Source: Escherichia coli (GTDB taxonomy: Bacteria; Pseudomonadota; Gammaproteobacteria; Enterobacterales; Enterobacteriaceae). From it: a DNA stretch of 64,000 nt. The position numbers were made by a program, and so were the translations under genes. Numbering within the stretch: position 1 is the stretch's first letter; the number at the start of each line of letters is the position of its first letter. The notes under the pieces are model-generated. The model ran no database searches and was not told the DNA's origin. It saw only the letters and a program-made list of their open reading frames with translations. Positions 36,677 through 37,056 of the stretch are shown one piece after another. The DNA is taken from NCBI RefSeq assembly GCF_003334405.1, contig NZ_QOWM01000005.1, one strand, 5' to 3'.

Positions 36677-36807
36677 AAGACAAACCGCACCAAAGCCGGT
36701 AATTCAAAAATCACCCATTCAGGTGATTCCCAGCCACCAGCAATGCGCGAAAAATCGACAATGTTCCTCTGGAACAAATGAAACGTAACCTGATAAAGGT
36801 GGTAAAA

Positions 36808-37056
36808 ATGAAGCCTTATTTTGCTGCTTTGATGTTATCAGTCTCTGTTCTTCCTGCTTATGCTGGTCCGCTCGGTACTGCTGATAAAGCCGACCTACCG
36901 CAAAGCAATGTCTCCAGCCCAATGATGGCCCAGTCGCTCAGGCAACCAGACCTGCAACCGATATCGACGGACAGGAAGACAGAATGTTTTCGCCTTTACA
37001 CACCAGATCGCAAACCGGGAGTGAACTGCGTTCCTGATGGCTCGACAGGCCATTAA
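36808..37056 (+). CDS. yjbT: small putative secreted protein YjbT (82 aa from this start; 92 aa if started at 36778)
   Basis: ORF 36778..37056; ATG at 36808 is preceded by Shine-Dalgarno aaggtgg and yields signal-peptide-like MKPYFAALMLSVSVLPAYAGP. Confidence 0.55.
   Translation: MKPYFAALMLSVSVLPAYAGPLGTADKADLPQSNVSSPMMAQSLRQPDLQPISTDRKTECFRLYTPDRKPGVNCVPDGSTGH

Follow-up and report, generated by a model that had tools for sequence, protein, structure and literature searches.

Annotated start codons that lie too far upstream have been corrected genome-wide in Escherichia coli by profiling of tetracycline- or retapamulin-arrested ribosomes (PMC4909307; bioRxiv 10.1101/520783). The gene yjbT (b4620, 'PF17089 family protein YjbT'), located in the 64,000-nt stretch of E. 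coli contig NZ_QOWM01000005.1 analysed here (the window, to which positions refer unless stated otherwise), resembles such cases, with an upstream ATG lacking a ribosome binding site (RBS) annotated as the start and a downstream in-frame ATG, with a good Shine-Dalgarno (SD) sequence and conserved context, that is likely the real one. It differs from them in being argued from comparative genomics only, and in that the mature protein is the same with either start. A second likeness concerns the leader of the gene. In the model of de Smit and van Duin, SD-sequestering leader hairpins reportedly have an adjoining single-stranded standby site, and in yjbT the SD and AUG are predicted to lie in a stable, conserved stem that follows an A-rich unpaired linker, although this stem is A/U- and G·U-rich and of moderate stability. 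The pairing of the SD within an A/U- and G·U-rich leader hairpin of a small gene also recalls RNA thermometers (fourU, ROSE), whereas the yjbT leader has neither a fourU nor a ROSE motif and no Rfam match.

The annotated yjbT open reading frame (ORF) spans 36778–37056 (+), 279 nt, and encodes 92 amino acids (aa) from its first ATG (ATG1, 36778). An earlier note on this DNA had proposed that ATG1 has no RBS, and that a second in-frame ATG 30 nt downstream (ATG2, 36808), preceded by aaggtgg, more likely begins an 82-residue precursor. This proposal is supported, mainly by orthologs that start at the Met equivalent to ATG2 and by the invariance of the SD and of ATG2 itself. From these comparisons ATG2 is likely to be ancestral and is most probably the main start, producing an 82-residue precursor, and the stretch MKRNLIKVVK encoded between the two ATGs is most likely 5' untranslated region (UTR). 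The sequence agrees with the coordinates and translation that had been given, as AAGGTGG occupies 36796–36802, followed by the 5-nt spacer TAAAA and ATG2, and the frame reads MKRNLIKVVK-MKPYFAALMLSVSVLPAYA followed by GP. The SD:anti-SD duplex of ATG2 was calculated at −8.5 kcal/mol, which ranks in the top 1.4% when all 2014 ATG triplets of the window, both strands included, are compared, and 28 neighbouring annotated genes had a mean SD pairing of −6.8 ± 2.4 kcal/mol. The duplex of ATG1 was −3.3 kcal/mol, at the 33rd percentile of the same ATGs, and therefore represents background complementarity. The only SD-like element before ATG1 is a GGA (36771–36773) that lies within a small palindrome, in its 3' arm, and the description of ATG1 as lacking an RBS is essentially right.

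Family members were sought with a one-genome-per-species scan and with word-based and exhaustive profile searches. The distribution of YjbT in the one-genome-per-species scan was narrow, being restricted to Escherichia species and Kluyvera georgiana, and the word-based and profile searches brought in further members from Pseudocitrobacter, Buttiauxella izardii, another Buttiauxella, Shimwellia pseudoproteus and two other lineages. All homologs carry PF17089. Each of the eight family members found outside Escherichia starts at the Met equivalent to ATG2, with an N-terminus of the form M-[KRT]-x-Y-[FW], and no ATG is present at the ATG1 position in the DNA of any of them. In three lineages the conserved start is preceded by an in-frame stop codon, at a distance of 8 codons in Pseudocitrobacter (locus L031), 9 in Buttiauxella sp. 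(L034) and 7 in Shimwellia (L036). The Kluyvera group has no upstream in-frame ATG or TTG, the only upstream in-frame start being a GTG inside the SD, and only L029 and B. izardii (L032) contain a distant in-frame ATG, 21–22 codons upstream and beyond a conserved palindrome. The upstream start is thus unconserved in the orthologs, and the downstream start and its SD are conserved, as in an over-extended annotation.

That ATG1 is in frame with yjbT at all is due to a 1-nt indel between the two ATGs, where E. coli has ATAAAGG and the others have ATAAGG; a coding extension would not tolerate such an indel. Escherichia and the Kluyvera group share the block CTGAT(A)AAGGTGGTAAAAATGA without any change, although only 7–11 of 24–25 synonymous codons (28–46%) are identical between them within the invariant C-terminal peptide. 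When three lineages are aligned, the SD arm and spacer vary at only one column (18 of 19 invariant), compared with 3 of 13 invariant columns (23%) in the surroundings of ATG1. Judged from these alignments, strong purifying selection acts on ATG2 together with its SD, and ATG1 is an Escherichia-specific novelty. The upstream triplet would have arisen in the variable linker of the 5' leader, and the reference annotation would have taken it by a longest-ORF or inherited-annotation habit.

Folding of the leader predicted a conserved hairpin, previously undescribed, that sequesters the SD and ATG2. Its outer stem is formed by CUGAUAA (36790–36796), the nucleotides just 5' of the SD, with UUAUCAG (36835–36841) from codons 10–11, and the GGUGG of the SD pairs with codons 6–7. 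The minimum free energy (MFE) is −13.6 kcal/mol in E. coli (z −2.5), −12.7 kcal/mol in K. georgiana and −12.0 kcal/mol in L005, with z ranging from −1.9 to −2.5. The SD and start are thus predicted to be paired in a stem of above-expected stability (−12 to −13.6 kcal/mol), and the hairpin is conserved across lineages with compensatory changes. Because MAFFT misplaced the extra A of E. coli, pairs were counted on register-true segments. Among nine sequences, from which the structure was partly derived and for which consensus folding favours conserved columns, 83% of hairpin cells were paired (0 of 500 shuffles as high; slid controls 31–59%) and four hairpin pairs were changed on both sides (15 of 500 shuffles). 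Such two-sided changes include C–G to U–A in Pseudocitrobacter, U–A to A–U in Buttiauxella sp. and G·U to U–A in L029. Paired columns were invariant far more often than unpaired ones, in the coding arm too (17 of 19 versus 12 of 30), and the outer stem is not kept in B. izardii and Shimwellia. A search of the Rfam 15 covariance models returned nothing covering 36762–36841. That a conserved, probably regulatory structure is centred on ATG2 adds to the indications that translation functionally begins there.

Read from its 5' end, the leader would consist of a stem-loop (36762–36776), an A-rich single-stranded linker of ~13 nt that is a possible ribosome standby site, and the hairpin, in which the SD and ATG2 would pair with codons 3–11 and restrain translation. 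On the strength of the folding predictions, the hairpin probably keeps yjbT translation low or conditional. An RNA thermometer was also considered. The predicted probability of the SD being unpaired was 0.00–0.02 in E. coli, and no higher than 0.14 in the orthologs, between 20 and 45 °C. As the stem is predicted to remain closed over this range, a thermometer is not supported.

Several results weigh against ATG2 as the principal start in E. coli. The case that the earlier note had made from the SD alone is incomplete, as in the predicted fold the hairpin buries both the SD and ATG2 (probability of being unpaired 0.01 and 0.15, respectively), and ATG1 is placed in an unstructured A-rich stretch (0.74–0.83). 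In a simple model that adds SD pairing to the unfolding of a −18 to +12 footprint, the unfolding cost of ATG2 was 14.9 kcal/mol compared with 8.4 ± 2.8 kcal/mol for the 28 neighbouring genes. With its SD pairing of −8.5 kcal/mol ATG2 reached a sum of +6.4 kcal/mol, similar to the +5.2 kcal/mol of ATG1 (SD −3.3, unfolding 8.5 kcal/mol), and both are poor relative to the neighbours (SD −6.8 ± 2.4, sum 1.6 ± 3.2 kcal/mol). Kluyvera-group starts came to about +2 kcal/mol (SD −9.1, unfolding 11.2–11.4 kcal/mol). The hairpin cost therefore cancels the SD advantage of ATG2, and the SD argument alone does not settle usage in E. coli. ATG1 is present in all five Escherichia species sampled, among which the whole leader is nearly identical, and the 53 nt at 36768–36820 are identical in 5,243 of the 5,414 complete E. 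coli genomes that have the locus, the other 171 having one mismatch. The long precursor, with a 12-residue n-region of charge +5 and a 29-residue signal peptide, would also be acceptable for Sec export. In public records, RefSeq and its Prokaryotic Genome Annotation Pipeline (PGAP) give a 92-residue yjbT in every E. coli record inspected, b4620 of K-12 MG1655 is annotated as the long form (4239777..4240055, −), and the Pfam model of PF17089 has 92 positions. Additionally, yjbT/b4620 is absent from the available supplements of TetRP, of a translation initiation site (TIS)-signature study, of TRAINSPOTTER and of INRI-seq.

One way to accommodate these results is dual initiation in Escherichia, in which ribosomes would start both at ATG1, without an SD and via the linker, and at ATG2 when the hairpin breathes. 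Ribosomes starting at ATG1 would unwind the hairpin on reading through, and the two precursors would differ in their n-regions and yield the same mature protein. The comparable energy sums, the accessibility of ATG1 beside a buried SD and ATG2, the retention of ATG1 in all sampled Escherichia species and the compatibility of the long n-region with Sec export are consistent with this, as is the inclusion of ATG1 in most RNA-seq 5' ends, and by the energy model some SD-independent initiation at ATG1 in E. coli is possible. However, dual initiation as a whole is unlikely, given that the SD complementarity of ATG1 is only background with its GGA in the palindrome stem, that an ATG1 leader would be very short, and that the ancestral system works without ATG1. 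Nor is there any sign of coding constraint on the extension, where the Escherichia species differ by one nonsynonymous change (K2T) and one synonymous change, and variants exist in which either ATG1 or a later triplet of the extension is altered. In a draft genome (L024) ATG1 is replaced by AGG with the gene otherwise intact, a variant absent from the complete genomes. In metagenome contigs and one complete genome GGTGG is changed to GGAGG, which yields a perfect AAGGAGG SD and would introduce a Glu into the n-region (V8E) if the extension were coding. These rare variants are suggestive. Little can be made of the retention of ATG1 itself, since at this depth the entire leader is just as invariant, and E. 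coli population variation is uninformative as a natural experiment on the start; two of the single-mismatch genomes were inspected and carry CCT to TCT, downstream of ATG2.

The reference annotation would be right if ATG1 had become the main start in Escherichia, giving a 92-residue precursor with a 29-residue signal peptide. The agreement of PGAP, K-12 b4620 and the Pfam model on 92 residues, the exposure of ATG1 with ATG2 sequestered, and the conservation of ATG1 across Escherichia all speak for it. It is nonetheless improbable, as all comparative evidence favours ATG2, the SD of ATG1 is weak, and in Escherichia ATG2 and its own SD have stayed intact and invariant, which nothing would require if they were unused. 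The consistency of the annotation amounts to propagation of one call, and PGAP is itself discordant in K. georgiana, where 82-aa and 85-aa forms are both found. The 85-aa form of some K. georgiana records corresponds to a start at an in-frame GTG (36799), three codons upstream of ATG2; this GTG is conserved in most lineages. A start at this codon is hardly credible, since the GTG itself belongs to the SD, the sequence upstream of it lacks complementarity to 16S rRNA (+0.3 to +0.4 kcal/mol), and the SD-plus-unfolding sum of the GTG is the worst of the candidates (+12.1 kcal/mol). In Buttiauxella L034, moreover, a spacer longer by 1 nt puts the GTG out of frame. A more elaborate possibility, which we regard as decidedly doubtful, is that the 5' stem-loop, standby linker and hairpin keep yjbT silent until the stem is opened, with the Escherichia AUG providing a second, hairpin-independent entry and the two precursors (+1 versus +5) possibly differing in export kinetics. 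If this were true, the yjbT leader would be a genuine translational control element. We infer that ribosomes in E. coli mostly use ATG2.

YjbT started at ATG2 would be a small Sec-exported protein with a 19-residue signal peptide, cut at AYA/GP (the slash marking the predicted cleavage) to leave 63 residues. The claim that ATG2 begins a textbook signal peptide ending before GP held up against simple rules. The n-region of the short form is MK (+1) and that of the long form MKRNLIKVVKMK (+5), neither with acidic residues. The h-region AALMLSVSVL, within an uncharged run from PYFAAL, has a mean Kyte-Doolittle value of 2.37, the maximum, and the cleavage site AYA/GPL has A-x-A before G, with no Pro at +1, no lipobox Cys and no RR. 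The orthologs have an n-region MTR (+1), like the short form, and predicted sites VYA/IN or VFA/ID after 21 residues. By the same sequence rules the long-form signal peptide is unusual but acceptable. Both precursors share the predicted AYA/GP site and so would give the same 63-residue mature protein whichever start is used. N-terminal proteomics could therefore not tell the precursors apart, and tryptic peptides of the K/R-rich extension would be tiny and would derive from a signal peptide that undergoes degradation. The check by N-terminal proteomics that the earlier note had proposed, and the refutation by peptides from the extension, are accordingly weak.

Within the mature protein, the C-terminal 25 residues (codons 58–82) are identical between E. 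coli and L005, with a V to I change in K. georgiana and L008. A Thr, both Cys and PG-NC-PD are invariant in five genera, the Cys pair being 14 residues apart, and the remainder of mature YjbT, its N-terminal part, is poorly conserved. This pattern suggests that the C-terminal segment with its two Cys may be a small disulfide-looped functional module, and the invariant segment is probably the functional part of YjbT. Mature YjbT matched no NCBIfam family and had no relative by sequence in the PDB.

The start-site ambiguity of yjbT is already visible in public data. The exact 82-residue YjbT has been deposited on 68 contigs (e.g. AJE58594.1), and ATG1 is intact on most of the sampled contigs bearing this form; therefore other gene callers simply prefer ATG2. 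In RefSeq the K. georgiana ortholog has 82-aa and 85-aa forms, the latter from the GTG inside the SD, and the Buttiauxella orthologs have 76-aa and 81-aa forms, such that start calling across the whole YjbT family is inconsistent. E. coli YjbT matches the PF17089 hidden Markov model (HMM) with an E-value of 1.5e-65, residues 1–92 aligning with model positions 1–92. The family-wide alignment begins at residue 11 of this model, whose 92 positions differ from the family in including the Escherichia-only extension. In consequence, ten N-terminal residues that are untranslated, or belong to a minor form, are probably included in b4620, in its derived RefSeq proteins and in the PF17089 model. In the literature, the name yjbT appears in essentially no relevant paper, with only an FlhDC systematic evolution of ligands by exponential enrichment (SELEX) table using it as a flanking-gene label. 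Correction of the start touches signal-peptide predictions, construct design and family models and leaves the mature protein unchanged. For a known gene this is a routine annotation correction of small practical consequence, to which the hairpin is a minor bonus; a hairpin at the true start hints at translational restraint of YjbT, which is relevant to anyone expressing or studying the protein. The features are collected in Table 1.

Table 1. Positions in the window of the yjbT coding, leader and flanking features, with the evidence for each.
Feature	Position	Strand	Evidence or remark
yjbT coding sequence (CDS) from ATG2, 82 codons and stop, proposed true CDS	36808..37056	+	start Met common to all orthologs; PF17089
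Escherichia-specific in-frame stretch MKRNLIKVVK (ATG1 and 9 codons), annotated as coding, most likely 5' UTR	36778..36807	+	outside Escherichia absent, out of frame or stop-interrupted
SD AAGGTGGT for ATG2, followed by spacer and ATG	36796..36803	+	−8.5 kcal/mol; invariant in Kluyvera-group orthologs
Predicted conserved hairpin sequestering SD and ATG2	36790..36841	+	MFE, shuffles, two-sided pair changes
Palindrome / putative 5' stem-loop TGTTCC-TCT-GGAACA, directly before ATG1	36762..36776	+	RNA-seq 5' ends on it
Signal peptide of short precursor, MKPYFAALMLSVSVLPAYA, 19 aa, predicted signal peptidase I (SPase I) site AYA/GP	36808..36864	+	rule-based; orthologs alike
Predicted mature 63-residue periplasmic or secreted protein	36865..37053	+	from the shared cleavage site
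C-terminal 25 residues TECFRLYTPDRKPGVNCVPDGSTGH, two Cys	36979..37053	+	near-identical in Escherichia and Kluyvera group
11-bp GC-rich hairpin between convergent yjbT and yjbH, probable bidirectional terminator	37062..37093	.	−25.1 and −21.9 kcal/mol on the two strands

A directional RNA-seq study reported b4620 to be transcribed in all seven conditions. The assembled 5' ends, converted from U00096.2 and imprecise as they derive from coverage, fall at 36770, 36771, 36765 and 36756, with two further ends at 36802, between the two ATGs, and at 36835. From the imprecise ends at 36756–36771, the leader would be 8–22 nt for ATG1 and ~38–52 nt for ATG2. The palindrome before ATG1 is kept in Kluyvera, Pseudocitrobacter, Buttiauxella and L029 with a loop of 3–5 nt, its outer pair being changed from T–A to G–C in L029, and might form a stem-loop at the 5' end of the mRNA or be bound by a protein. 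By inspection, AAAAAT (36750–36755) could be a −10 element, as it aligns with GATAAT of Pseudocitrobacter 6 nt before the palindrome. A consensus scan for promoters and terminators found nothing, and in the part of the Cappable-seq supplement available no entry fell at 42400xx–42402xx in U00096.3 coordinates, where a table in older coordinates would be missed. A sigma-E promoter (GGAAC ... (T/C)CTGAT, by eye) was rejected since the spacer is ~11 nt rather than ~16 and the transcription start site (TSS) would fall inside the SD.

Upstream of these elements, an inverted repeat AATCACC-CATTCA-GGTGATT (36709–36728) is kept imperfectly in the Kluyvera group and lies ~42 nt before the putative transcript start, where activator sites are typically located. 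CRP- and NtrC-like sites were considered for ATCACC-N6-GGTGAT and rejected by inspection, as consensus orientation or spacing did not fit, and by eye the repeat matched no known regulator consensus. The repeat is overlapped by a 61-nt transcribed fragment listed in the supplement of PMC3734233 (36701–36761, −; U00096.2 4238095..4238155 forward), which is on the psiE strand and divergent or antisense to the yjbT promoter region. The divergent psiE–yjbT intergenic region also contains a REP-like GC-rich palindromic element (~36603–36705), with a sub-threshold match to the REP-like Rfam family naRNA4 at 36643–36735. In many E. coli strains (ATCC 25922, FDAARGOS_1291) this element is replaced by a shorter unrelated sequence, and conservation of the yjbT leader begins directly after it, at ~36706. 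PGAP annotates a 47-aa 'hypothetical protein' here (WP_000487766.1, 36634–36777, −), whose TTG start abuts ATG1 of yjbT. Its ORF crosses the REP-like element, is missing in strains without that segment and is not annotated in K-12, and its SD complementarity is at background (−3.2 kcal/mol); it looks like a spurious call.

Within the window yjbT is preceded by xylE (34579–36054, +) and psiE (36098–36508, −) and followed by yjbH (37103–39199, −). The psiE–yjbT–yjbH order is present in two of the added members, Pseudocitrobacter and L029. At loci L005–L008, L032, L034 and L036 yjbT does not adjoin psiE or yjbH, its neighbours there including a glycosyl hydrolase/PTS (phosphotransferase system) cluster, a CsbD gene with fimbrial genes, and a DUF2767 gene. 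As yjbT is mostly away from psiE and yjbH outside Escherichia, its linkage to the yjbEFGH exopolysaccharide genes is probably not functional. On the 3' side, the GC-rich hairpin between yjbT and yjbH is, by its predicted folding on both strands, probably a bidirectional terminator that the consensus scan missed because it has no long T run. In the Kluyvera-group orthologs, too, the stop codon is followed by a GC-rich inverted repeat.
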